29,722 nucleotides of DNA from a virus (Duplodnaviria > Caudoviricetes): positions 1-29,722 of the IMG/VR virus record IMGVR_UViG_3300012952_000082. One strand, 5' to 3'. The position numbers and the translations under genes are program-made. Each line of letters starts with the position of its first letter. Position 1 is the stretch's first letter. Below the pieces are notes generated by a model. That model saw only the letters and a program-made list of their open reading frames with translations. It searched no databases and was not told the origin of the DNA. Shown piece after piece: positions 3,274-29,722 of this stretch.

Positions 3274-5307
3274 ATGATAGGTAATGCTCTTCCAATTCCG
3301 TGGTTGAGGAGCATATATAGTTCCTCTGGTCCATCAGGTCCACAACCTTTCATATTAAAAATAGATACTAATAATACTTTTGGTGGTCCAAATTACCCAT
3401 TCGGAATAAACACAGACTCTTTATATACTTACGATTATACCGTTGATTGGGGAGATGGAACTATAACAAGTCACACTGGTAACGCTAGTCACACGTATAG
3501 TACTCAAGCTATTTATGAAGTGAAAATATCAGGAGAATGTCCATGGATAAAATCATGGACTACTAGTACTGGTATAAATTATGTAGTTGACATAATACAA
3601 TGGGGTGATTTAGAGTTTAAAAGTTTAAAAGAAACATTCAAATCTTGTAGTATGTTAGGTAATCCAGATGGGACTAGTTCTACTCCTGGTATACCATTAA
3701 CAGTGACAGATACACCTACATTTGCAAGCGACTTTGCTTTTGATGGTTTATCTGGGTGGGCAGAAAGAACTTACTTCACCTCAATACCTAACCTAAATTC
3801 CTGGCAAATCCCAGATGTTTTAACTAGTCTTGAGAAGTGCTTTTACGATATGAAGTGGTGGAATGATAGTATCTCAAACTGGGATGTATCGCATGTTGGT
3901 AATTTTAAAAACATGTTTTTCTTCTGTAGAGAATGGACAAACAGTGGTGATGATTTGAATGGTTGGGAAGTTGGTAAAAATTATACTGGTGATTTAAACT
4001 TTGAATCCATGTTTTACTATTGTGACAAAATAGAAGATATTAAAATTTGGAAACAAGATTTGCATTTATTAAACATAAATTTTATAAATACTAAGTTTAT
4101 GTTTTATCAATGTGAAAAATGGAAACTAGAGTTAGAAAACTGGGATAATTCTTCAGTTAAGATAAACGAACTAGAAGGAATGTTTTACGGTGTTGGCTTT
4201 TATTACGCTGGTAATAACTCAAACGGAGGAGGACGCCAATATACTGATGAAGGTTTAAAAACTGATTTTTTTGGTTGGGATTTTAATACTAATAAAACAT
4301 CTCTTAGAGCTTTATTTTCTAATGCTTGTTTTGACGCAACGTTTAATGCAAACTTAGATGGTCATACGGCGACTAATATCACCGATTTTGATAATATGTT
4401 TGCTAATACTTTTATATGTTCTCCAACTAGTGTAGATAACTGGGTATTGGGAAATACACCTAATATTACAATGCGTTACACTTTTAGTGGTAGACCTTTC
4501 AATAGGTGGCCAGGTCCACAAGAAAGAAGAGCTTTGGATTGGAAAGGAGATTTTGGATCAGTTCAAACATTAAATGGGTGGGACGTCTCTAATGTTATAG
4601 ATTTTGACGGATGTTTCAATAGTGCACAGTTTGATACGGGACCAGATGATTGCAAACCAATACTAGGTAGTTGGACTATATGCACAGATCCAACAGTTAA
4701 CGTAAGCTTAAGTCGTATGTTCAGAAACAGTCAGTTCAACGATACTTTAGTAAATGATATAAACAAATGGGATTTAAGTAGTGTTACCAGTATATTTGAA
4801 ACGTTTGGAGGTTCTGGTGGAGTTAGATTTAATCAATCCCTAAGCAACTGGGACACTAGTAATGTTACAAATATGGCCCAGTTTGTTTATTACAACGTTT
4901 ACTTTAATCAAGACATATCTCATTTTAATTTAGAAAAAGTTACAACAGTAAATAGGTTTTTTGATAAAACTCAAAATTATTCCTATGGGATGGATTGGAT
5001 GGAAATGCCTTTGATAACAGACGGTGAAAGATTTCAATTTCAATGGAAGTTTGATACTCAAAAATATACGGACACTTTAAATGCTTGGGCTTTATATTAT
5101 TATAATAGAGTACAGGCTGGTTTAACAGTTCCTCAAAACATATTAATGACATTTAACACTATAGGTTATTGGGGTGTTACAAATTACTTTATAGCAGGGT
5201 TAAATACTTTACCAAACGGGTTAACTACTAGGGATTATTTAATAACCGCAACTACTGCTGGTGTACCTGGCTTAGGTTGGACATTACAAGATGGAGGAGG
5301 TATATAA
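3274..5307 (+). CDS. PKD-like domain plus BspA/DUF285-type repeat protein (677 aa), probable virion adhesin
   Basis: YTVDWGDGT...SHTY...YEVKISG is PKD-like. Repeats such as ISNWDVSHVGNFKNMF, LNGWDVSNVIDFDGCF, INKWDLSSVTSIFETF and LSNWDTSNVTNMAQFV are typical of DUF285/BspA-family proteins. Confidence 0.8.
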   Translation: MIGNALPIPWLRSIYSSSGPSGPQPFILKIDTNNTFGGPNYPFGINTDSLYTYDYTVDWGDGTITSHTGNASHTYSTQAIYEVKISGECPWIKSWTTSTGINYVVDIIQWGDLEFKSLKETFKSCSMLGNPDGTSSTPGIPLTVTDTPTFASDFAFDGLSGWAERTYFTSIPNLNSWQIPDVLTSLEKCFYDMKWWNDSISNWDVSHVGNFKNMFFFCREWTNSGDDLNGWEVGKNYTGDLNFESMFYYCDKIEDIKIWKQDLHLLNINFINTKFMFYQCEKWKLELENWDNSSVKINELEGMFYGVGFYYAGNNSNGGGRQYTDEGLKTDFFGWDFNTNKTSLRALFSNACFDATFNANLDGHTATNITDFDNMFANTFICSPTSVDNWVLGNTPNITMRYTFSGRPFNRWPGPQERRALDWKGDFGSVQTLNGWDVSNVIDFDGCFNSAQFDTGPDDCKPILGSWTICTDPTVNVSLSRMFRNSQFNDTLVNDINKWDLSSVTSIFETFGGSGGVRFNQSLSNWDTSNVTNMAQFVYYNVYFNQDISHFNLEKVTTVNRFFDKTQNYSYGMDWMEMPLITDGERFQFQWKFDTQKYTDTLNAWALYYYNRVQAGLTVPQNILMTFNTIGYWGVTNYFIAGLNTLPNGLTTRDYLITATTAGVPGLGWTLQDGGGI

Positions 5308-5839: not shown

Positions 5840-6059
5840 TGTAATAAGAAAAATTAGTATTGGTTCTGATTATAAAAACGAAGCTATGCACTATTCTGTA
5901 GGTCAGCAGGTCTATGGAGGTCATACTATTTGTAATATATTAAGTAGTGAGAAAAAAGGAGATTACATGATATATATTAAAAAGAATGATGAAGTTTTAC
6001 CATGGAAGAAATTTAATTCAAACATGGCTATAGCTGTTGAGTTTGATTTAGAATATTAA
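5832..6059 (+). CDS. Small conserved-type phage protein (75 aa)
   Basis: ATG at 5832 (MSSVIRKISIGSDYKNEAMHYSVGQ...) overlaps the previous gene by 8 nt and is coupled to the next gene by TAATG. Confidence 0.75.
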   Translation: MSSVIRKISIGSDYKNEAMHYSVGQQVYGGHTICNILSSEKKGDYMIYIKKNDEVLPWKKFNSNMAIAVEFDLEY

Positions 6060-6664
6060 TGAAGTCATTATATAGTTTTATAATAAAACCTTACAAAGAA
6101 CGATACAACAATGAAATTAATGTTGGTGATAAAAAACTAATATTAAATTCTAATATTGAAATTCATAGTTCAGTTGATAAGAGAGCAGTTGTAGTATCTA
6201 CTCCAGCTGCTTTTGACACTGACATTAAAGTGGGTGATGTTGTTTATGTTCATCATAATATATTTAGAAGATATTATGGCGTGAGAGGTGAGATAAGAAA
6301 TAGTAGTAGTTATTTTAAAGATGATTTATTTTTCTGTGAACCTCATCAAATATATTTATATAAATCAAATAAAAAGCTTAATTGCAATTTAGATTATTGT
6401 TTTGCATCTCCTGTTGAAAATGAGGATGTTTTAAGCTTAGAAAAGGAAAAACTAATGTTAGGTGTTATGAAGTACTGTAGTAGTTCCTTAAAAGATCTAG
6501 GAATAAATCCTGGAGATCTTATTACTTTTTCACCAGATTCCGAGTTTGAATTTATAGTGGAAAATGAATTATTATATTGTATGAAATCTAAAGACATAGC
6601 ACTAAAACATGAAAACAAAGGAAACAAGAAAAAATATAATCCAAGCTGGGCGAAAAGCAGTTGA
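6059..6664 (+). CDS. GroES-like co-chaperonin, apparently two tandem GroES-like units (201 aa)
   Basis: FIIKP...AVVVSTP...IKVGDVVYV, then a second unit GVMKY...GINPGDLITF...EFIVENELLYCMKSKDI. Both resemble the GroES beta-barrel pattern. It lies just upstream of the packaging genes. Confidence 0.65.
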   Translation: MKSLYSFIIKPYKERYNNEINVGDKKLILNSNIEIHSSVDKRAVVVSTPAAFDTDIKVGDVVYVHHNIFRRYYGVRGEIRNSSSYFKDDLFFCEPHQIYLYKSNKKLNCNLDYCFASPVENEDVLSLEKEKLMLGVMKYCSSSLKDLGINPGDLITFSPDSEFEFIVENELLYCMKSKDIALKHENKGNKKKYNPSWAKSS

Positions 6665-17985: not shown

Positions 17986-20900
17986 ATGGCTAATGAACTA
18001 AGAAGTACCTTCATCAGATCTAAAATGAATAAAGATCTTGATGCAAGGATTGTACCACCTGGAGAATACAGAGATGCAGTTAACATAGCAGTAAGTAAGT
18101 CAGAAGGAGCTGATGTTGGTGCTGTAGAAAACGTTTTAGGAAATAAAATAGTTTCTGATTTTGGTCTTAATTCTACTTTTCCAAATACAGAGTGTATAGG
18201 TATATATGGAGATAAAACAAATAATAGAATATTTGTTTTCTTAACTGATTACACTGACAATTCTGAAGACCTACTTAGTAATAAAGCTTTTTCAGGAGCT
18301 TTTTGTGGTATATACGTTATTGACTTTGAAGCTGGAAATAATTATAAAAAGTTAGTTCAAGGGTCATGGTTAAACTTTTCTAAAAATAGCCCAATATTTG
18401 GTATTAGTTTATTAGAAGACACACTATTTTGGACAGATAATAGAAATCAACCTAGAAAAATAAGTGTTAGTAAAGCTTTAGATAGACCAGCGGATTCTGC
18501 TAATCCATATTACCAGATAGAAGAAAATATATCAGTTGCTACTTATTACCCTTATGAACCAGCACAAGTTTATGATGAATACGAAGTTGAGGTTGTTGTA
18601 AGAACTTCTAATATAAAAGCAGATACAAGAACTAACGCAGGTTGTAGTGTTGCAAGTCCTGGTATTAATCCAATACAAAACGCTGTAAACTTAGGTACTC
18701 CACCTGAACCACCTGAAAATTATCCTCAAACCGGTTGGCAAACTATGTTTCAAATAACTAGTGAAATACCAGAAGGTTTAAAATTACATCCTGGAATACA
18801 ATTTTATATAAAAAAATCAACGCCTGGCGAAAACCCATTAGTGCCAGGAACTACATTTGGTGCACTACAAAATATAACTTCGTATCCATATTATAATGAA
18901 ATAAGAAATTATCCTATAGCGTGGGGACCTAGTAATTTTGGAGACTGTTATAATGGAAGTACTAAATACGATTTAACTAGCGCTAATTTAGCTCTTAGAC
19001 CTCAAGCAGGTTATGGTACTGCACAAGAAAAAGGTAATGGATTAATTGGTATGTCTTGCTCTTATGAGTATTTAACTAATCCTGAAGCTTTATTAACAGC
19101 TAATGACGGTACTAGTGTTTTAACCGCTAATATAGGACCTGCATCGGAATTTCCTGTAGGCGCTGATTTTGGCCATGAAAGTGCCGATTATCAAGAAAAT
19201 TATTTAAAATGGTTTTATTCTAATATACCTTTATTAGATGGCAATGAAGATTATACAGATTCATTTAGTACAGCTTGGTATGGAACAGCTACATTAGTAT
19301 TTGTAGTACCTAAAATGGTTAATAAAACTGACCAATTTTTACCACCAACATATAGAAATAAATTTGAAGGATTCTATCCACATGATAGTGCTACAACATT
19401 ACCTGACACATCCTGTGAGGGTGATGCTGGAGTCGGTAATCGTAATTATCGACTTGCTTCTAATGGTGCTACTATAGATGAAGTAGAAGCTTTAGGTGTT
19501 AAAAATGTTACTGTTAATCAAAGTTGGTTTCCTAGAATTACAGGAGATTCCGATCTAGCTAATTACCCATATTACGATGGTAATATCAATCAGGGTGGAA
19601 ATGATATGATTCTAGTATCCCCAAATTACGGAGGTGATGGTAATACTCAAGTTACGTTGTTAACACCTTATCAACGATCTGTAAGCGCAGGAATGTTTAG
19701 GGTTCTTAATAATGTAAATGGTTACGAATTAGGTGGGGCTGGACTTGGTGATGGAAATGCTAGTTCTTCTTATTTAAAAAACTACTTACAACCAGGAATG
19801 AGAATTTACTCTCCTATGTTTAATAGATTACCGTATGATTTCTATATTGATCAAATATTTATTAAAACAGTACAAGGAATTACCGTTCCACTTGGTTATA
19901 CTTATTTTAGTGTGTATGCTAAAGACAAATTTGGAAATTATATAGAAGATTGGGTAATGCCAGGGTTTTGTGATGTTAAAGATGCATCTTGGATTGACTT
20001 CCAATTTGTTAACCCTTACTATGATCCTTTGTTTAGCGGGGATAAAGAATATTTAAAAGATAAATTTTGTAAACTATCTTATAGGTTTCAATTTGAAAAC
20101 AACGAGTTTTCTTTAATAGCTCCTTTTACTCAAACAATGTTTGCTCCACTAGATGAAGGTTATTATACTTTTAATGCGGATAGATGGGATATACAAGAAG
20201 GAGGTACAGCTTTCTTAATGAATGGAGGTGCTGAGCCAACTAGCTCTATAGAAACAACTTCTCAAGGAACTATAAATCCATTATATCAAAACAGTATTAA
20301 TGAGGTTTCTTTAGTTATTAAAGCACCTAGAGTAGGAACTGAATATATAAAGTGGAATGAAGCTGAAGATAAATTAAAAATAAAAAATTTACAGATAATT
20401 TTTTCAGAATCAGATAGCAATAATTTAAGATTGTTGAAATCGATTCCTATGTCAGATCCTACTGTTATTAGTAATGACACTGATTCTTATGTTTATGTTT
20501 GGCAAGGTGATAAACCAATAAAATCACTACCTTCTAATGAGTCAACTAGAGTTTGGGATCAAGTACCTTTAAGAGCTTTAGCACAAGAGATATCAGGAAA
20601 TAGAGTTATTTATGGTAACTTTGTTGATAAGCATAGTTCACCTGATTTTTTAGATTTTGATATTGGTGTAGATGGAAAATACAATGTGGATACAGAGTTT
20701 TCTAATGACGCTAGAGTTCAATACAAATATCAAACTTTAAAAGGTAACAGAAGTTATCAAGTAGGTGTTGTTTTAGCCGATAAATTCGGAAGACAAACTG
20801 ACGTTATATTATCTTCACCTTCTGTAATTACATCATCAAATAACGAAACTTTATTTAGCGGTGATACTTTTACAGCACCTTATTTATCTGAAGAAAAAGC

Positions 20901-23325
20901 TATAAGTCTGCTAAAAGTAACAGGTAACAATTTAAGTAATTGGGAAGGAGATAGTTTAAAAATGCTATGGAGAAACCCTATACCAAACTCTATAGCTGGA
21001 TTAGATGGGTATCCTGGTCTATACACGGAAGAAGGAGGAGTTTCAAGAGACAACAATAGTATTGTAGTAGAAACTGCAGGATCAGATAATTATAGTGTAG
21101 CTAGAAATGTACCAACTCTAGCAGTTACAGGTGTTGGAGAAGGATTAACATTTGACATAAACGATGTAGATAGCGGTCCTATTCAATTCCCTACTGATCT
21201 ATATGTAAATAAACCTGGTAGAGGATATAAACCAGGTGATATAGTTAAAATAGAACAAGGTGGTGCTGATCAATGTGAAGTAAGAATATTAAAAGTAACT
21301 GAAGAAAACACTTTAGGCTTTTATTCTTACAAGGTAGTTGTTAAACAAGATCAACAAGATTATTATAATTTGTATCTTCCTCAAATAATTAATGGAGAGC
21401 CATTAACTAGTCAAGCTTTTGCTGGCGGATTTAATGAAGATATTCTAGTAAGTCAAGATTCTAAATTAACTTTTCCTACAATAGGAGATAATGTTAATAA
21501 AATACAAAGAGACGTTGAAGAAAGCAATGATTTAATAAAATTTATATCTAGTAGTACTACTTTATGGCCAAGAGTATCTCAATTTGGTGGGGTTTATATA
21601 AATCCATGGGTTAATTCTACTTCAGGTTCAGGTGCTGGAAATGTATGGACAGTTGATGTTGGTACTATTCAAACTGGAAATGTATTTAATCAAAAAGTAG
21701 CGGATAGTGTTATAAACGTGGGTCAAGTAGATGACATATATGGTCAAAATGTTACTAATGTTACTTATCAAACAGTAGATGCTTTAGTATATAAACAACA
21801 AGCAAACCCATGGATAACTGTAGCGGAAAACGACGTTAACAGAAATCCATTTATGAAAAAGTGGGAAGCAGCTTATGGTCCTAATTATGGTGGTGGTGGT
21901 CCAACTGCCGGTGTATTAGCGGAAAATTACGCACAATATTATGATGCTATAGAATGTACTATTGATCAACGTATAATTCCAACAGGTGTTGGCGCTGCTG
22001 GTAATTTATCTCCAAATAATGCAACATCTCCTTCTTATAGTAATGTTACATTTGGAACTTTTAACTGTGGCTTAGCCGTTGTTGAAACTACGCCATTTGA
22101 ATCTAATATAGATATATATTGGGAAACTTCTACAGCTGGTACTATAGCAGATTTAAACTACGCTATAGAAACAAATGTAGATGAACAGCAATTATTTTCT
22201 GTAGATATAGATAGAAATCCAAATGGATGGAATGAAAATGATGAATCGTTATATTGGTTGCTTCAAGAAAATACAGCTCTACCAGCTGGTCAACCTTATG
22301 ATCCAGATAATTTTTATCCACTTTCTGGACCTAGTGGAGCGTATGATCCATGGATACTTTCAGTTACCCCTAAAAATGTAGTAGGTGGAATTATACCTCT
22401 AAATAGAGTTGTTGGCACACCAACAGTTACAGTTGTAGATAATTTAGGTAATTCATATCCAACTGTTTTTATAATGAATAATAATACTACAGGAACTAGT
22501 GAATTTAAACTTTATAACCTTTCTCAACAAATTCCTTATCTTTCTGCTCCAGGTCAAGGTCATACATTTACAGCTACAATAACTTTTGAAACTTTACCTG
22601 AGTTACCTATAGACCCTAACTTTATTAAAAGTTTTGATGTGCAATTTGATTTAGAAAATCATGAACCAGAAAGAATTACTAATCCAAGAAATCCTAGAAG
22701 AGACTATGGACCAGGAACTGCTGACTGGGGTGATCCTTGGCCTGTTCCTTCAGCAGAAGCTACTTGTGCTCCTCAACTTACAACTACAGATACTGGAGTT
22801 GTTGTAGGTAAAATACCTTGCCCATCTTTAGGGAGTGATCTTGGAGAAGAACCTAGTTATACTAATGGTATGTTTATACAGCCGTTTTTCCCTGTGGTAG
22901 GTGGACCACCTCCACCGACAGCAAATTGGGGAGCTCCTGAAGACACTAATTTCCAAGGTAGATTTGGTATACCAGAAAGAGCAGGTGACGAATTAAAATG
23001 GGAAATAACTAAATGTGTAACCGCTCAAATTGATGTAGTTAATAATATTTTAGTTCCTTTACCTACTACTGATCCTAATTATTATAATGCCTTAGCTAAT
23101 GTAGATTGGGTTTATGGAGATAATGGTTACTTTGATGATCCTGTTGGAAATGGAACAGGTTCACAGTTTAACGGGATAGAAGTAACAAGTGCTATACCTC
23201 AGACAGGTATATACTTGCTTGAGTGGAAGGTAACAGATGCAAATGATAATGACGCTGATGGTAATGAGTTATCATTGGCTTATCCAGAACCTGGTATAAT
23301 TCAAATGGCTTTTGAGATTGTGTAA
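17986..23325 (+). CDS. Tail stabilisation/muzzle protein, N-terminal part (1779 aa, large insertions)
   Basis: KMNKDLDARIVPPGEYRDAVN, LFWTDNRNQPRKI, SYRFQFENNEFSLIAPFT, QEISGNRVIYGNF and YQVGVVLADKFGR are motifs of crAss-like/P22 gp10-type stabilisation proteins. Confidence 0.7.
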   Translation: MANELRSTFIRSKMNKDLDARIVPPGEYRDAVNIAVSKSEGADVGAVENVLGNKIVSDFGLNSTFPNTECIGIYGDKTNNRIFVFLTDYTDNSEDLLSNKAFSGAFCGIYVIDFEAGNNYKKLVQGSWLNFSKNSPIFGISLLEDTLFWTDNRNQPRKISVSKALDRPADSANPYYQIEENISVATYYPYEPAQVYDEYEVEVVVRTSNIKADTRTNAGCSVASPGINPIQNAVNLGTPPEPPENYPQTGWQTMFQITSEIPEGLKLHPGIQFYIKKSTPGENPLVPGTTFGALQNITSYPYYNEIRNYPIAWGPSNFGDCYNGSTKYDLTSANLALRPQAGYGTAQEKGNGLIGMSCSYEYLTNPEALLTANDGTSVLTANIGPASEFPVGADFGHESADYQENYLKWFYSNIPLLDGNEDYTDSFSTAWYGTATLVFVVPKMVNKTDQFLPPTYRNKFEGFYPHDSATTLPDTSCEGDAGVGNRNYRLASNGATIDEVEALGVKNVTVNQSWFPRITGDSDLANYPYYDGNINQGGNDMILVSPNYGGDGNTQVTLLTPYQRSVSAGMFRVLNNVNGYELGGAGLGDGNASSSYLKNYLQPGMRIYSPMFNRLPYDFYIDQIFIKTVQGITVPLGYTYFSVYAKDKFGNYIEDWVMPGFCDVKDASWIDFQFVNPYYDPLFSGDKEYLKDKFCKLSYRFQFENNEFSLIAPFTQTMFAPLDEGYYTFNADRWDIQEGGTAFLMNGGAEPTSSIETTSQGTINPLYQNSINEVSLVIKAPRVGTEYIKWNEAEDKLKIKNLQIIFSESDSNNLRLLKSIPMSDPTVISNDTDSYVYVWQGDKPIKSLPSNESTRVWDQVPLRALAQEISGNRVIYGNFVDKHSSPDFLDFDIGVDGKYNVDTEFSNDARVQYKYQTLKGNRSYQVGVVLADKFGRQTDVILSSPSVITSSNNETLFSGDTFTAPYLSEEKAISLLKVTGNNLSNWEGDSLKMLWRNPIPNSIAGLDGYPGLYTEEGGVSRDNNSIVVETAGSDNYSVARNVPTLAVTGVGEGLTFDINDVDSGPIQFPTDLYVNKPGRGYKPGDIVKIEQGGADQCEVRILKVTEENTLGFYSYKVVVKQDQQDYYNLYLPQIINGEPLTSQAFAGGFNEDILVSQDSKLTFPTIGDNVNKIQRDVEESNDLIKFISSSTTLWPRVSQFGGVYINPWVNSTSGSGAGNVWTVDVGTIQTGNVFNQKVADSVINVGQVDDIYGQNVTNVTYQTVDALVYKQQANPWITVAENDVNRNPFMKKWEAAYGPNYGGGGPTAGVLAENYAQYYDAIECTIDQRIIPTGVGAAGNLSPNNATSPSYSNVTFGTFNCGLAVVETTPFESNIDIYWETSTAGTIADLNYAIETNVDEQQLFSVDIDRNPNGWNENDESLYWLLQENTALPAGQPYDPDNFYPLSGPSGAYDPWILSVTPKNVVGGIIPLNRVVGTPTVTVVDNLGNSYPTVFIMNNNTTGTSEFKLYNLSQQIPYLSAPGQGHTFTATITFETLPELPIDPNFIKSFDVQFDLENHEPERITNPRNPRRDYGPGTADWGDPWPVPSAEATCAPQLTTTDTGVVVGKIPCPSLGSDLGEEPSYTNGMFIQPFFPVVGGPPPPTANWGAPEDTNFQGRFGIPERAGDELKWEITKCVTAQIDVVNNILVPLPTTDPNYYNALANVDWVYGDNGYFDDPVGNGTGSQFNGIEVTSAIPQTGIYLLEWKVTDANDNDADGNELSLAYPEPGIIQMAFEIV

Positions 23326-23354: not shown

Positions 23355-25292
23355 ATGGCAACAATAATAGAAATAGATTACTATAACGCTTTTTGGACTA
23401 AAAAGATATACACAGGACCAGGCGCTGCTCCAACAACTGGAGGTGAAACCTATGCTGGAGGATCTGCTTGTTATCCTGGACCAGTTGGATTTGGTGATTC
23501 TGTTAAAGGTTTAGGTAATATAACTACTTTTAGCGAGCAAGACGGTGGGCCAGTTCCATCTTCTTTAGATAAATGGCCTAATATTAATTCAGCTAATTTT
23601 GGAGTTCCTAGTGGTCCTTTAAATCCTGTACAACAACAAATATTAAGCACAAACTTTTACATAGAAGATAGTAGAATAAGAGGTGGTTATAATAATACAC
23701 AGGTAAATTTAGGTGTTAGGGCTTATTTGAACGAAGATAATCCTTTACAAAAACATCGTATAAACTCTTTAATATATTCAGGTCCACTAAATAGTTTAAC
23801 AAACTTTAATGAAACAAATGTATTTTCAATAGGAGAAAGTATAACTAAGTCGGTAGACCCATCTTATAACTCTATACAATATCTATCTGCTGACGATACT
23901 AACTTGCTTATAATGCAAGAGAATAAAACTAGCTATGCTTTAATTGATAAAGACGCTATATATTCTGCAGAAGGATCTGGAACTCCAGTATCTACAGAAA
24001 CGGAAGTTATTGGTCAAGTGGTTCCTTACTTAGGAGAATATGGTATAAGTAGAAATCCAGAATCATTTGCTAGATTTGGTTTTCAAAAATACTTTGTAGA
24101 TAAAGATCGTAGTGCTGTTATGAGGCTATCTAGAGATGGTTTAACAGAAATCTCTGAGTATGGCATGAAAGATTATTTTAGAGACGAATTAGAGCTTGTA
24201 ACTGATGAAATGAGATTAGATAATACTAACGTCTACAATACGTTTGGGGCTGGTGGAAGTTTGATTGGGGAATATATATACGTAGCGCAAGATCCTGGAG
24301 TTGTGGTTGCTCCACCACTTGGTAGTTTAGTTAGATTTGACAATTACACTGGTAATATGAGACCTTATGTTATAAGAGTAGTGGCAGTTGCTGGCGGTTG
24401 GGTAGCATACCTACGAGGTTGGCCAGAAGTTGGAGGAGTTAAAGTTGCTGTACCTGCTACTTGTTATTTTCAAACCAAAATAAAAGGTAGAGTTTTAGGA
24501 GCTTATGATATATATGGAAAACAATACACAGTTTCTCTACAGAAAAATCCAGCTACTAAAAACCAAATTGATTTAGAAAGTTTAGATGATTATCAAACAG
24601 TTGGTTTTGACGAGTCAATAAATGGTTGGGTAAGTAGATATACTTATAAACCTTGGCAAGCGGTTAGTTTAGAAAATAAATTCTATACTGTTGGTCCAGA
24701 TAATAGAAGATACAAAGTATGGCAGCAATATGAAGATACTGTTGATAGAGGAGACTTCTATAGTCAAGGTGTTCTTCCTTCAGCTATAACTTTCTTTGCT
24801 AATGGCGAACCTTCTCATAGTAAAGTTTTTCAAACTATTTCTTACGAAGGATCTAGCGGTTGGTATATTGCAAGTATACTCAGTGATGAAGAAGGAAAAG
24901 ATTTAGTAAATAATGTATGGGAAGAGTTTACTGATCAAACAACTGTTGTTTATAGTTATATAGAAGGACAGTATGAATTAAACACTCCTACTAATACAGG
25001 ATTAAACGCAGATCCGGCTGTTGATACTATTATACATGCTGGTTTTGATAGAAAAGAAAATAGATACGTAGCTAATTTAGTACAAAAAATAACACAAAAC
25101 GATCCAACACTTGGACCTCCAAATGATCCACCTTATTACCCAGTAAGACCAGGTGAAGTTATATCAGGTTCAGATATGAGTGGTATAAAAGGTTTTTATT
25201 CTACAATTACAATAGCTACTGATAACGTTACAGAAGTAGGTGGACCTAAAGAGTTATTTACTGTAGCAACTAAAGTAGTTAAATCATCTTAA
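23355..25292 (+). CDS. Tail stabilisation/muzzle protein, C-terminal part (645 aa)
   Basis: LIYSG, GEYGISRNPESFA, YFVDKDRSAVMRLSRDGLTEISEYGMKDYF, GWVSRYTYKP and KVFQTISYEG are beta-propeller-type motifs of the same family. Confidence 0.7.
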   Translation: MATIIEIDYYNAFWTKKIYTGPGAAPTTGGETYAGGSACYPGPVGFGDSVKGLGNITTFSEQDGGPVPSSLDKWPNINSANFGVPSGPLNPVQQQILSTNFYIEDSRIRGGYNNTQVNLGVRAYLNEDNPLQKHRINSLIYSGPLNSLTNFNETNVFSIGESITKSVDPSYNSIQYLSADDTNLLIMQENKTSYALIDKDAIYSAEGSGTPVSTETEVIGQVVPYLGEYGISRNPESFARFGFQKYFVDKDRSAVMRLSRDGLTEISEYGMKDYFRDELELVTDEMRLDNTNVYNTFGAGGSLIGEYIYVAQDPGVVVAPPLGSLVRFDNYTGNMRPYVIRVVAVAGGWVAYLRGWPEVGGVKVAVPATCYFQTKIKGRVLGAYDIYGKQYTVSLQKNPATKNQIDLESLDDYQTVGFDESINGWVSRYTYKPWQAVSLENKFYTVGPDNRRYKVWQQYEDTVDRGDFYSQGVLPSAITFFANGEPSHSKVFQTISYEGSSGWYIASILSDEEGKDLVNNVWEEFTDQTTVVYSYIEGQYELNTPTNTGLNADPAVDTIIHAGFDRKENRYVANLVQKITQNDPTLGPPNDPPYYPVRPGEVISGSDMSGIKGFYSTITIATDNVTEVGGPKELFTVATKVVKSS

Positions 25293-25303
25293 AATAATAA
25301 AAA

Positions 25304-26053
25304 ATGACAATACCTCCACAATTAATACAAGCAGGCGTCCAAGTTGGAATCGGTTTAATGGCTAAGGGAAAAGCTAATAAAATGGATGAGCAATTACAAA
25401 CTGCTCAAACAAATTTAGAAACAGCTATTGATAGTAGACCAGATATAATAAATCCATATGCCGGTGTTCAAGCTTACCAAGCTGAAGATTTATCACATAT
25501 GATAAAAAATCCTTATGCTAACCTTAGAGTAGCTACGAAAGCCACTGAAATACAGATGGAACAGACAGATCAAGCTCTAGCAAACACTCTAGACACTTTA
25601 GCCGTCAGTGGTATGGGGGCTGGTGGCGCAACAGCTTTAGCGCAAGCAGCGGCAAAAGGCAAACAAGATATTGCTGCTGATATAGCACAACAAGAGGTTA
25701 ATAATGACAAATTAAGAGCTCAAGGCGAAATGCAGGTTATGCAAGCTAAAATGGCTGAAGGTCAAAGAATACAAGGTATTGAACAATCTGAAGCTGCTAG
25801 GGTACAAAATGCAAACGCAGCTGGTGAACAATTTATGTTTCAACAAGCAGACGCAAGAGCAACACAAGACATGGATAGAGCTCAAGCAGAATTAGATAAC
25901 TTACAAGCTCAGCAAAATCAATACAACAGTGATGCGGCTAGTAGTTTTGGCTCTGCTGCTGGTACTGCTTTTGGAAGTGTTAGTATGAATTCTAGTGGAG
26001 ACTGGAGTTGGGCAACTTCTAACAATCAATCAAACACGCCGGGAAATCCATAA
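25304..26053 (+). CDS. Internal virion (ejection) protein 1 (249 aa; possible 281-aa frameshift isoform)
   Basis: A/Q/G-rich helical protein with glycine-rich hydrophobic stretches (GVQVGIGLM, GMGAGGATALAQAA), located after the tail genes as in podoviruses. Confidence 0.65.
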   Translation: MTIPPQLIQAGVQVGIGLMAKGKANKMDEQLQTAQTNLETAIDSRPDIINPYAGVQAYQAEDLSHMIKNPYANLRVATKATEIQMEQTDQALANTLDTLAVSGMGAGGATALAQAAAKGKQDIAADIAQQEVNNDKLRAQGEMQVMQAKMAEGQRIQGIEQSEAARVQNANAAGEQFMFQQADARATQDMDRAQAELDNLQAQQNQYNSDAASSFGSAAGTAFGSVSMNSSGDWSWATSNNQSNTPGNP

Positions 26054-26148
26054 CCGGGAGCGGTAATAATACTCAAAATGAATTTTCTGATGATGAATGG
26101 AACGCTATAAACTTTGGCATAGACGCTTTTAGCTCACTATATAATTAA
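26041..26148 (+). other. Candidate -1 programmed ribosomal frameshift site with 33-codon extension
   Basis: In-frame G_GGA_AAT at 26041-26047, a 5-nt spacer, then hairpin ACCG-GGAG-CGGT. The -1 frame is open to TAA at 26146-26148. Confidence 0.65.
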
Positions 26149-26152
26149 AACT

Positions 26153-28345
26153 ATGGGAACATACACACAACCTTCACAAATAATAGATACTTCTTTTGGA
26201 GACTTTTCAAAAGCTGCAACTGCTTCGTATGATAAAGAGCAAGCTAAAATAGCTGCTCGTCAAAAAAATATGCAGGCAATGGCTGCAAAAGTCTTAAAAG
26301 AAAGACAAAAGAAATTGCTAGCAGCTCAAAACGCTCAACTTAAAAAAGAAGGTGGAATTGCAGAAGAAGTAGCTAATACTGAAGCGGCTGTTCAAGGTTA
26401 TACAGATAACAGACAACATATGGGTTTGAAAATAACTCGTGATGATGGTGGAACCCAAGTAACTCAATTAAATGCAGATAATTGGAATAGCTATAGTAAA
26501 CTTATAGAAAATTACTCTTTATACTCCACTCCTATAAACACAACATCTGGTAAAGGTGAAAGACAATTGGGTTCTGGCTTTGAAGATGATGGATCTGGTA
26601 ATTTTACATATACAGGAGATGATCTATCTACGCCTGGCGTAACTGAATTAGGTTATCAAGTAAAGTTTTCTAAAGATGAGTTAGACTGGTTAGAGCATGC
26701 TATGGTTACAGAAAACAGGCAAGTTAAACTTAATAATAAATTGTTAGGTGGTACACCTAAGATTGAAAATGATCAAGAAACTGACATGCATATAACTGAT
26801 TGGTATAACAGTTATAAAGGTAAGTTTCAAAACGAAGGAGATCTTTCATTGGGTATAGATGGTAGCATGAATGCTCAAATAGAACTGGCAGGAGCTATGA
26901 TGGGTAAGTATGATAAAAACTCACCTCAATATCAACAAAATAGATTAATTTTAGAATCAACTCAAAAAGAAATGCCTGAGTTTATAGGTATGTTAAATAA
27001 TCTTAAAGACTTACAAAAGAAAATAACTAAAAGTAATGGAACTTTAAAAGAAACAAATCAAGTTAATTCTATTAGATATGATTTAGGAGGCACTCCTCAA
27101 GAGCAACAGCAATTTGAATTACAAACTAATTTTGCTCTTGACTGGGGACAGCCAAATACAGCACATAGATTTCACACGTTACTTTCCCCAACTGGTCCTA
27201 AAATAGTTTATTATAATCCTCACATATCTGATAAGGAGTTTATAGTTACTAAAGAAGATGTAGCTAAATGGGCAGAGAATAATGGTAACATGGGTGTTTA
27301 TACATTAGATCAAGAATCATTAGATGTAGTTGAAGAAAATCTGGAAAAAAGTATTAGAACTACAAAACCTGTTTATACAAGGAGTAACAATAAATATCAA
27401 ATAACTAGACAAGATGGTACTGTTACAGAGGTTAGTGAGTCGGAAGCTGCATTAGATTTTTCTACTCAAAATGATTTAACATATGAAGATATTCAATCAT
27501 TTTTCTATGATAAAGATAGAATAGTTGGAAATGGTTTTGGAAATGGAAGTGTAGATGCTGGAGATTTTGATGGACAAAATACATGGCAACTTATAGGTGG
27601 ACCTAAAGCTGAAGGAGGTAAATATGGTTTAAATTGGATTGATATAAGTAAATGTACTAGCGTTGAATGTAAAGAAAGAGCTAGAGCACAACAAGATTAT
27701 ATGGTCGAACATTACATGAATAAATATAGAAAAGATAATTATTCTACTTTAGATACTAAAACTATAAAAACTTTAAAGAAAGATGGAAACAAGCAAAAAG
27801 CAGATTCATTTGTTAGCGGTGAAAGTAAAATAACTTTTAATGATACTAGTTTAAGTGGTTATGGTTTTAAAAGAGATAGTGATGGAGAAAGCGAATATAC
27901 TGTAGAAGAAATAGCTAGTAAATATGATCAATTAAGAGTAACTAATAATAATGGGGTAAATGGTATAGCTGAATTGTTAAATAACGTAGCTAACTACGCA
28001 ACTAGTAGTGGATCACCTATTCAATATATGTCAGGTGCTCAATTAAGAAAAATGTACAGCGATAATGGTTTTCAAGTAGACGCTGCTGATTACCCTGATG
28101 AAGTTAATGGGAGATTAAATCTTTATTACATAGGTGGTAGTGGTACTCCTGCTTCTATATCAATAGGTAGTCAAGCTGAATTTATAAAAAGAGTTGCTAA
28201 ATCTAGCGGCGTTTCTAATGGTGTAGCGACACAGATACAATCAAGCTTTGGTAACACTACACAAGTAACTACAGATATAGTTATGAATAGAACAAATAGT
28301 GAAATATTCGACATGCTATCTTCAGATCTACCAACTTTAGGTTAA
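26153..28345 (+). CDS. Probable internal virion (ejection) protein 2 (730 aa)
   Basis: MGTYTQP start, N-terminal coiled coil, hydrophilic. Assigned by position between the small and the large internal protein genes. Confidence 0.55.
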   Translation: MGTYTQPSQIIDTSFGDFSKAATASYDKEQAKIAARQKNMQAMAAKVLKERQKKLLAAQNAQLKKEGGIAEEVANTEAAVQGYTDNRQHMGLKITRDDGGTQVTQLNADNWNSYSKLIENYSLYSTPINTTSGKGERQLGSGFEDDGSGNFTYTGDDLSTPGVTELGYQVKFSKDELDWLEHAMVTENRQVKLNNKLLGGTPKIENDQETDMHITDWYNSYKGKFQNEGDLSLGIDGSMNAQIELAGAMMGKYDKNSPQYQQNRLILESTQKEMPEFIGMLNNLKDLQKKITKSNGTLKETNQVNSIRYDLGGTPQEQQQFELQTNFALDWGQPNTAHRFHTLLSPTGPKIVYYNPHISDKEFIVTKEDVAKWAENNGNMGVYTLDQESLDVVEENLEKSIRTTKPVYTRSNNKYQITRQDGTVTEVSESEAALDFSTQNDLTYEDIQSFFYDKDRIVGNGFGNGSVDAGDFDGQNTWQLIGGPKAEGGKYGLNWIDISKCTSVECKERARAQQDYMVEHYMNKYRKDNYSTLDTKTIKTLKKDGNKQKADSFVSGESKITFNDTSLSGYGFKRDSDGESEYTVEEIASKYDQLRVTNNNGVNGIAELLNNVANYATSSGSPIQYMSGAQLRKMYSDNGFQVDAADYPDEVNGRLNLYYIGGSGTPASISIGSQAEFIKRVAKSSGVSNGVATQIQSSFGNTTQVTTDIVMNRTNSEIFDMLSSDLPTLG

Positions 28346-28361
28346 TATATAAAATAAAATA

Positions 28362-29722
28362 ATGGATAAATTAACATACGCACAATCTTTAATAGATCAA
28401 GGCTTAGATAAAGAAACTTTTATTTTGGAAATGGATAAATTTGATGCACAAAACATTGTTAATGATGTTGAATGTGGAGAAGGTTTTGAAAAAGACGAAA
28501 ACAATAATTGCGTTCCTGTGGGAAAGCAAGACCCCGCTGTAAATGCTGTGGAGACAGTGGATGTAGAAAACACAGTAGAAGATCCCAATGGGGATTTAGT
28601 ATCGGAAAATATTTTATCGGTATCCTCAGATGGTGATCCATTAAAGACTAATAAAGGTTTTACATATACGGAAACAGAAAAACCTTGGCAAGGAAATAGT
28701 CTTCAAGAAAACTTAGCTAAAATAACTAAAGAACAAGGATTAAGTGAAGATTTTTTTGAAGATCAAACAAATGTTAATAGATTTATAAAAATACTAGAAA
28801 GAGAATACGCTGACGCTACAGTAGAACAACCTAATTTAGACGAAGAATTAAACATGGGTGTTAATTCAATTAAGTCATGGGCTAAGAAGGGTAATAATTT
28901 TTTAAATGGTTATAATCTAAAAGATCCGAATTCTGGAGAACAGCCAAAGTTTGATGAAAATGGAGATATTACTGATCTTTACTTAACATATGTTCGTACT
29001 CATAAGGACTCTTATAATATATCTCCAGAAATTCTTGCTGAAGAAGGATTTGTAGATGATAATGGTTATTATACTTATAACGCTATGAGAGCTGGTTTAG
29101 GTAAGGAAGGTGAAACACCTAACTATCAATACTGGTATAATAAAGCTAAAAGAAATACTAGCGGAGAGCTTTTTAGAACCCCTATTAAGTATGAATTAGA
29201 CAATGATGGTAATATCATAAATTCTGAATTCAACAAACAATTAACTGAAAATACTTACGTAGATCAATTTGGTAATACTTTTAACGTAAACCCTAACTTA
29301 GGGGAATTTTTACCTACTCACATATTAAATGTCAATGAAGAGACAGGTGAAGTAACTAATATTCCAAATCCAGATTTAATTTCTGAAAACTCAACTTTAT
29401 ATCAAAGAGAACAAAACTTTAAAGAAGCTGCACTGAGTCAAGTACCAGACGTTAAAGCTGAAGATTATCAAGTATTAGGGTATGTTTACAAACCTACTAG
29501 TGTTGATGTGAATGTCATGGGTGAAAGAACGGGTGTAGAAAACGCTTTACAAAGAGAAAAATCCCTTGCAATTGCTAATGAAAAAAACATCGCTATAATA
29601 AACGATTTAAAAAGTCAACTTGAAGAATTTGATATTCAAAAAATTACAATTGGAAACGCTATAAAAGGTTTAGCAGAACAAATAAAAAACCCTGATAGTG
29701 ATAAAACCTTATCTGCTTTAAT
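28362..29722 (+). CDS. Large probable internal virion protein 3, 3'-truncated (at least 453 aa; missing from ORF track)
   Basis: ATG at 28362 after an A/T-rich leader. MDKLTYAQSLIDQGLDKETFILEMDKF... stays open to the window end (...PDSDKTLSAL). Very acidic and N-rich. Confidence 0.8.
   Translation, partial: MDKLTYAQSLIDQGLDKETFILEMDKFDAQNIVNDVECGEGFEKDENNNCVPVGKQDPAVNAVETVDVENTVEDPNGDLVSENILSVSSDGDPLKTNKGFTYTETEKPWQGNSLQENLAKITKEQGLSEDFFEDQTNVNRFIKILEREYADATVEQPNLDEELNMGVNSIKSWAKKGNNFLNGYNLKDPNSGEQPKFDENGDITDLYLTYVRTHKDSYNISPEILAEEGFVDDNGYYTYNAMRAGLGKEGETPNYQYWYNKAKRNTSGELFRTPIKYELDNDGNIINSEFNKQLTENTYVDQFGNTFNVNPNLGEFLPTHILNVNEETGEVTNIPNPDLISENSTLYQREQNFKEAALSQVPDVKAEDYQVLGYVYKPTSVDVNVMGERTGVENALQREKSLAIANEKNIAIINDLKSQLEEFDIQKITIGNAIKGLAEQIKNPDSDKTLSAL
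28520..28636 (+). other. Candidate -1 programmed ribosomal frameshift cassette with H-type pseudoknot
   Basis: In-frame G_GGA_AAG at 28520-28526 and a 7-nt spacer. Stem 1 is CCGCTGT/ACAGTGG and stem 2 is TGCTGTG/CACAGTA. The -1 frame gives 36 codons to TGA at 28634-28636. Confidence 0.75.

Follow-up and report, generated by a model that had tools for sequence, protein, structure and literature searches.

Probable −1 frameshift cassettes in two internal-virion protein genes of a marine phage, distributed independently of one another among its relatives

The stretch of DNA analyzed here (29,722 nt; hereafter the window) belongs to a marine phage and carries the virion block of a Bacteroidota-type podovirus. 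The genes for terminase, a P22-like portal, a capsid-type structural protein and a two-part crAss-type muzzle are followed by three genes on the plus strand, which we term genes A, B, and C. Gene A (25304–26053) encodes a helical internal-virion protein of 249 amino acid (aa) residues, gene B (26153–28345) is the middle gene of the block, encodes 730 aa and yielded no cassette of the kind described below, and gene C (28362–29720) is a giant virion gene that runs off the window after 453 visible residues. The gene C counterpart in a close relative, L001, is at least 1888 aa long. The muzzle-type gene consists of two ORFs (17986–23325 and 23355–25292), which correspond to the beginning and a later portion of phrog_14478, respectively, and the same split was found in L002–L004. 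A DUF285 repeat protein (3274–5307) and a GroES-like protein (6059–6664) are encoded upstream of terminase, as in elemo and Panino.

In terms of the major capsid protein, the nearest cultured relatives of the window were Panino, Elemovirus, Pervagoviridae, and Pachyviridae (23–43% identity), and the gene order is shared with these phages. The counterparts of genes A, B, and C in phi40:1 and phi18:3 are annotated in the records as virion proteins detected by mass spectrometry (MS). No match was found when gene A was subjected to tblastn against cultured phages, and gene A was tied to them via the capsid protein and by its profile, which matched phi38:1 gp99 (probability 93.5); the profile comparison with phi18:3 gp120 gave no match (2.7). 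PF24072 was detected below the cut-off in 5 of 47 gene A homologs and in phi38:1 gp99, gene A matched (0.95) an atlas cluster that is 11% PF24072, and Foldseek returned a match to an "internal virion protein" with an E value of 1.7e-5 and a TM score of 0.39. By these sub-cut-off matches gene A leans toward T7 gp14/P22 gp7, which we regard as a lead only. The homology between gene C and the giant genes of the isolates is positional only, and no polymerase Pfam domain was detected in eight giant-gene proteins, several of which are partial. Altogether, we infer with good reason that the block of genes A, B, and C encodes ejection proteins.

We found 72 in-frame slippery heptamers in 23 ORFs of the window, four of them being GGGAAAN. 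One of the four is G_GGA_AAT at 26041–26047 (site 1; codons 247–248 of gene A, one codon before the TAA stop) and another is G_GGA_AAG at 28520–28526 (site 2; codons 54–55 of gene C), both on the plus strand and in frame, as an earlier note on this DNA had described. The −1 frames at sites 1 and 2 are open for 34 and 37 codons, respectively, and the remaining two GGGAAAN sites (4449 and 25366) hit a −1 stop after 3 and 2 codons, which agrees with the same note. A −1 frame open for at least 34 codons occurs at 1.1% of the codon positions in the ORFs of the window, and 2 additional heptamers among the 72 also stay open for at least 33 codons. In the muzzle gene, the −1 frames behind the TTTAAAA heptamers at 18777 and 20955 extend for 38 and 33 codons, probably by chance. 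Plain nested folding was insignificant at both sites (z of +0.30, +0.52, −0.82, and −1.92), and the Rfam search yielded two chance-level matches, neither at a site. The 3' structures that had been claimed at canonical spacing were nevertheless recovered as pseudoknots, with spacers of 5 and 7 nt and stems covarying across relatives. The claim that each site appends a tail held for the 33 and 36 new residues but not for the reading of site 2 as an extension, since the shifted gene C product would end at residue 91.

The relatives were sampled with an alignment of 47 sequences, namely gene A of the window and 46 of the 120 homologs listed. The search with this alignment supplied the best 80 viral loci (out of approximately 1,400 viral stretches) and the best 80 metagenome loci, to which four others were added. 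A gene A call was missing at two loci, gene B was present in 155 rows, and gene C was represented by 360 nt or more in 117 rows. These rows collapsed into 133 and 100 lineages, respectively, when clustered at 90%.

At site 2, the heptamer is followed after a spacer of 7 nt by an H-type pseudoknot (28534–28577, plus strand), of which stem 1 (S1) comprises 28534–28540/28554–28560 and stem 2 (S2) 28544–28550/28571–28577. The −1 frame (28526–28636, plus strand) adds 36 new residues with a net charge of +8, and the predicted product is 91 aa long. The frame contains a conserved motif, WGFSIGKYFIGI (28589–28624, plus strand), predicted to form a beta-hairpin, and the family consensus is YG[IF]x[FIL]G[RKS][YW]F[FI]G[IF]. 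Within the best-80 sets, 66 of 100 lineages carry the motif in the −1 frame of gene C, and 58 of these 66 possess both slip site and knot. When the same cassette scan was applied elsewhere, 3 of 100 gene B starts and none of 91 downstream stretches of gene C were positive. The slip sites varied among the relatives (G_GGA_AAG, A_GUA_AAG, G_GAU_UUU, A_AAU_UUU), and the first stem lies 5–7 nt downstream of the slip site in 48 of 65 cases. Across 29 hand-picked loci, 92% of the cells in the knot were paired with 43 double changes, a level attained by none of 500 shuffles, while, examined singly, just 33 of 65 knots beat all of their 25 shuffles. Seven more lineages have a slip site, a knot and a divergent tail, and approximately 27 of the 100 lineages lack site 2; the 91-aa product is thus not universal. 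The gene C starts of L022, L024, L033, L059, L069, L079, L089, and L179 show a slip site and a knot, followed by divergent aromatic tails that escaped the HMM or the pattern.

A six-frame HMM search gave no match scoring at least 11 bits other than in gene C or at the corresponding position just after gene B. Among the differing codons in 65 aligned cases (L102 dropped), 36% were synonymous in the −1 frame versus 10% in the 0 frame; three Gly columns in this comparison were preselected by the search pattern, and the count for the unselected F column was 61/65. Judging from this codon pattern, the motif is under selection in the −1 frame, and the hairpin is the selected part of the site 2 product. 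AlphaFold2 modeled the tail with low confidence (mean pLDDT of 61) as a two-strand hairpin (strands 25–31 and 34–40), which is predicted to have one hydrophobic face. Nothing usable was obtained when the tail was compared with PDB folds, the ESM Atlas and PHROGs. The tail profile had 28 matches among 1.84 billion proteins, mostly the N-terminal module with the tail in frame. We considered natural fusions for these matches and rejected them in favor of likely indels, since 10 of 10 looked up were single-member clusters. Two cysteines at site 2 are conserved at 90% or more. A metal site is disfavored, since the cysteines overlap the stems and are missing in the forms with A-runs (see below), and they are probably a by-product of the knot. 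In L165 (33550–33640), both outer Gly positions of the hairpin are occupied by Cys (RYCIKLGRYSICI), and this pair could form a cross-strand disulfide that fits the hairpin register.

Sister and cultured phages have a different arrangement. In all of the six contigs retrieved by a pattern that required nine As plus the motif, the same motif lies within a few codons of an A10 run, with neither a knot-length spacer nor a Cys cluster. As the motif is found under the knot-associated slip site and the A10 run alike, it is the product that is conserved, not the signal. Likewise, 10 of 10 annotated phage records have an A9–A11 run at codons 33–66 of the giant gene, and the frame entered after the run is basic and aromatic/Gly, similar to the site 2 tail but looser in sequence. 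The phages phi38:1, phi40:1, Calle, elemo, Panino, phi13:2, phi18:3, and Gundel share the gene order of the window but bear an A9–A11 run instead of heptamer and knot. No annotation of a shift was found in the records fetched for the cultured relatives. Transcription slips on stretches of nine As, and ribosomes shift on A_AAA_AAG (passages of PMC5009743). An A9 run splits the giant gene into a small and a long ORF in the records of L166 (31565–31760) and L169 (18119–18394), with equivalents in L171, L172, and L173, and the A-run accounts for a giant gene split in two in several public records. Obligatory slippage was considered for the A9 splits (Panino, phi13:2, phi18:3, phi19:3, and phi46:3) and set aside. 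They are probably homopolymer errors, because Panino was sequenced by Nanopore (parts of PMC11590407) and Gundel, of the same family, has A10 in frame. The Cellulophaga phage set was reportedly sequenced by 454.

Because of the anatomy and conservation of the two sites, we infer −1 slippage at both: a fraction of ribosomes would slip back one base at the heptamer by tandem −1 slippage stimulated by the knot. According to passages of PMC5009743, ribosomes of E. coli tend to shift at G_GGA_AAG and A_AAG, and the highly shifty sites named there do not include G_GGA_AAT. Slippage at site 2 would end translation early and release a 91-aa protein, in which the small N-terminal module of the giant protein is joined by a basic linker to an amphipathic beta-hairpin. 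By analogy to lambda gpGT, we tentatively propose that this product serves as an adaptor, of which the hairpin binds the membrane and the shared module holds the ejection-protein assembly. The position of the motif 3–15 residues from the C-terminus is also compatible with a site that mainly cuts the yield of the giant protein and marks the by-product for degradation by the hairpin. The early exit resembles that in copA (passages of PMC5009743), and the N-terminal-module ORF of phi18:3 (gp122) is not annotated as MS-detected. However, an immediate stop would be a simpler means to lower the yield, and a motif of 12 residues is kept under two distinct recoding signals; we regard this possibility as unlikely. 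The net charge of +8, the single hydrophobic face of the hairpin and the N-terminal module in common with the giant protein could alternatively suit a cationic hairpin peptide that would be packaged together with the ejection proteins and would act on the membrane of the host during entry. The missing annotation of gp122 as MS-detected in virions speaks against it, albeit weakly for such a small ORF, and we find a packaged peptide improbable as well.

In geometry, site 2 can be compared with E. coli copA/CopA(Z), where an 834-aa gene gives rise to a product of 70 aa through an early −1 shift (passages of PMC5009743), the predicted sizes at site 2 being 91 aa versus at least 453 aa. The likeness is one of analogy, and homology is not claimed. 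In contrast to copA, site 2 resides in a virion gene of a phage, and its 36 new-frame residues include a motif under selection.

At site 1, a spacer of 5 nt separates the heptamer from a compact H-type knot of 22 nt (26053–26074, plus strand), in which S1 (26053–26056/26061–26064) and S2 (26058–26060/26072–26074) are accompanied by an A-rich loop (26065–26071). The −1 frame (26047–26148, plus strand) encodes 33 new residues with a net charge of −5, is hypervariable, and stops 4 nt before gene B, so that the predicted long form is 281 aa versus 249 aa. Both stems covary in 13 sequences at a level reached by none of 500 shuffles, and the outer S2 pair appears as four Watson-Crick types, in an alignment that was partly fixed by the DNA search pattern. 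The scan of single loci found no knot in 4 of 16, and most of the others were not above the shuffles singly. Knots of the luteovirus type (BWYV, PLRV) have a short S1, a 3-bp S2, an A-rich second loop and a spacing of 5–7 nt. The site 1 knot shares this shape but differs in its bacterial host and has no Rfam match. The element is a candidate frameshift knot of 22 nt from a bacterial system, for which natural covariation is available.

Site 1 was found in 14 of 133 lineages (best-80 viral and metagenome loci). GGGAAAN lies within the last four codons in 13 of 135 gene A representatives, as compared with none of 461 other gene ends (p = 3e-9). In 17 of the 18 rows whose gap between genes A and B is 59 nt or longer, the last codons contain the heptamer, and the remaining row has G_GGG_GGA. 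In L103 (2185–2300), a variant of site 1 has G_GGG_GGA right before the stop, followed by a GC stem, and its −1 frame is open and terminates upstream of gene B. A DNA-only pattern, free of protein information, was run on 2.9 million contigs and gave nine matches, every one of them located at the end of gene A and followed by an open −1 frame of 19–47 aa; seven are distinct, including L001. In the quick tree, site 1 was scattered (11 changes for 13 rows, the shuffled mean being 12.6), and this scatter suggests repeated loss or exchange.

The poor support from shuffles of single loci would suit a knot that merely stabilizes the RNA at the gene end, with the open frame being incidental. Nevertheless, the in-frame heptamer and the spacing are fixed, an open frame is present at all six distinct loci that were recovered with no requirement for a tail (the shuffle probabilities multiply to approximately 6e-6), and an insertion distinguishing close strains is in frame. 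We therefore consider such an element very unlikely. On the sequence evidence, sites 1 and 2 are each likely to be a real −1 frameshift cassette within an internal-virion gene.

The tail behind site 1 behaves differently from the signal. The tails of the relatives are 17–47 aa long, open, rich in N, D, G, and S and of low complexity, and likeness between them is limited to a few pairs of relatives. The segment W-NAINFGIDAF is missing from a relative of 93% identity. Comparison of close strains in four runs showed no change in the heptamer or the stems, while the tail was either exchanged or differed at W, F, and G; one of the changes is a 27-nt in-frame insertion. Long in-frame tails are frequent in the gene A relatives without site 1, and the zero-frame C-termini past an anchor have a median of 44.5 residues with site 1 versus 54 without. 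Several gene A homologs (P0023, P0045, P0070, P0079, P0091, P0099, and P0117) carry an in-frame C-terminal intramolecular-chaperone (Peptidase S74) domain, which is another variable C-terminal option for this protein.

Slippage at site 1 would bypass the stop and generate a minor 281-aa form with a disordered, fast-changing tail. We give about an even chance to the idea that the cassette puts a tail, of the type often encoded in frame by relatives, on only some of the gene A subunits. The end point of the frame invites another view, in which site 1 acts via translation: the shifted ribosomes stop near the start of gene B, couple B to A, and set the A:B ratio. The tail is unconserved, and yet, among the 20 cases in which gene B is visible, 18 have the stop 1–21 nt ahead of it, the remaining two being a stop 45 nt ahead of gene B and an overlap of 8 nt. 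On the other hand, the A–B spacing is equally short in relatives without site 1, so that the end point may come from an in-frame tail, and some tails are common to relatives. This coupling is, in our opinion, rather doubtful. The setting of subunit ratios by each site separately is possible.

The proposed partial tailing of the gene A protein has parallels elsewhere. The slip site of lambda G/GT is G_GGA_AAG. In lambda G/GT, a −1 shift near the gene end produces a minor longer form with a common N-terminus (passages of PMC5009743), and site 1 has the same geometry. The present case differs in that the phage is a podovirus and the genes encode internal-virion proteins, that the extension at site 1 is short and unconserved, and that site 2 lies near the gene start and would truncate. 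In the long-tailed lambda, the chaperone is encoded between the genes for the major tail and tape-measure proteins; in the window, no match to the tail-assembly-chaperone family was found, the context being the P22-like portal, muzzle and internal-virion genes. Optional C-termini of virion proteins, in frame or shifted, are known in T7/T3 10A/10B and as Ig-like extensions in A2, A118, A500, and PSA (passages of PMC5009743). Those known extensions are on capsid or tail proteins and are often folded, Ig-like domains, whereas site 1 would add 17–47 low-complexity residues to an internal protein and is not in a capsid gene.

The earlier note had combined the two sites into one paired system, in which both proteins are partly tagged with the same aromatic/Gly type of tail. 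The two sites do use G_GGA_AAN in the window genome, where they coexist, as they do in L001 and in 9 of the 12 lineages with site 1. However, the survey of relatives placed the co-occurrence at the base rate: in the best-80 sets, 9 of the 12 lineages bearing site 1 also had site 2, compared with 57 of the 88 that lack site 1 (p = 0.75), and looser calling gave 9 of 12 versus 64 of 88 (p = 1.0). Site 1 occurs without site 2 in L094, L107, L118, L180, and L184. Nor is there a common tag, as the two tails share nothing, differ in charge (−5 versus +8) and conservation, and the W, F, and G of site 1 vary between strains. Finally, the gene A site would extend a protein and the gene C site would truncate one. 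We regard coupling as most improbable. Obligate pairing is excluded, and a weak association is still conceivable with 12 lineages. Sites 1 and 2 are distributed independently among the relatives.

Altogether, the observations are likely explained by covarying slip cassettes in genes A and C that are independent among relatives, with the shifting itself deduced from the sequences. We further propose, with less confidence, that the giant gene encodes an unannotated component of the ejection machine with a membrane hairpin, reached by two recoding routes (pseudoknot-dependent slip or A10), and that a luteovirus-like knot provides the gp14-like subunits of some lineages with a partial hypervariable tail. 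Our search of the openly accessible literature found no paper on either shift and none on frameshift in ejection-protein genes, and the word "frameshift" is absent from PMC8776804 and PMC11590407. Documented phage frameshifts are in tail chaperones or produce capsid or tail extensions. The site 2 product would represent a hidden protein that is conserved in a large group of uncultured phages (two thirds of them in the best-80 sets) and has counterparts in cultured ones. Genomes with two shifts have been described before (passages of PMC5009743), and the window genome combines one common cassette (site 2) with one rarer cassette (site 1).
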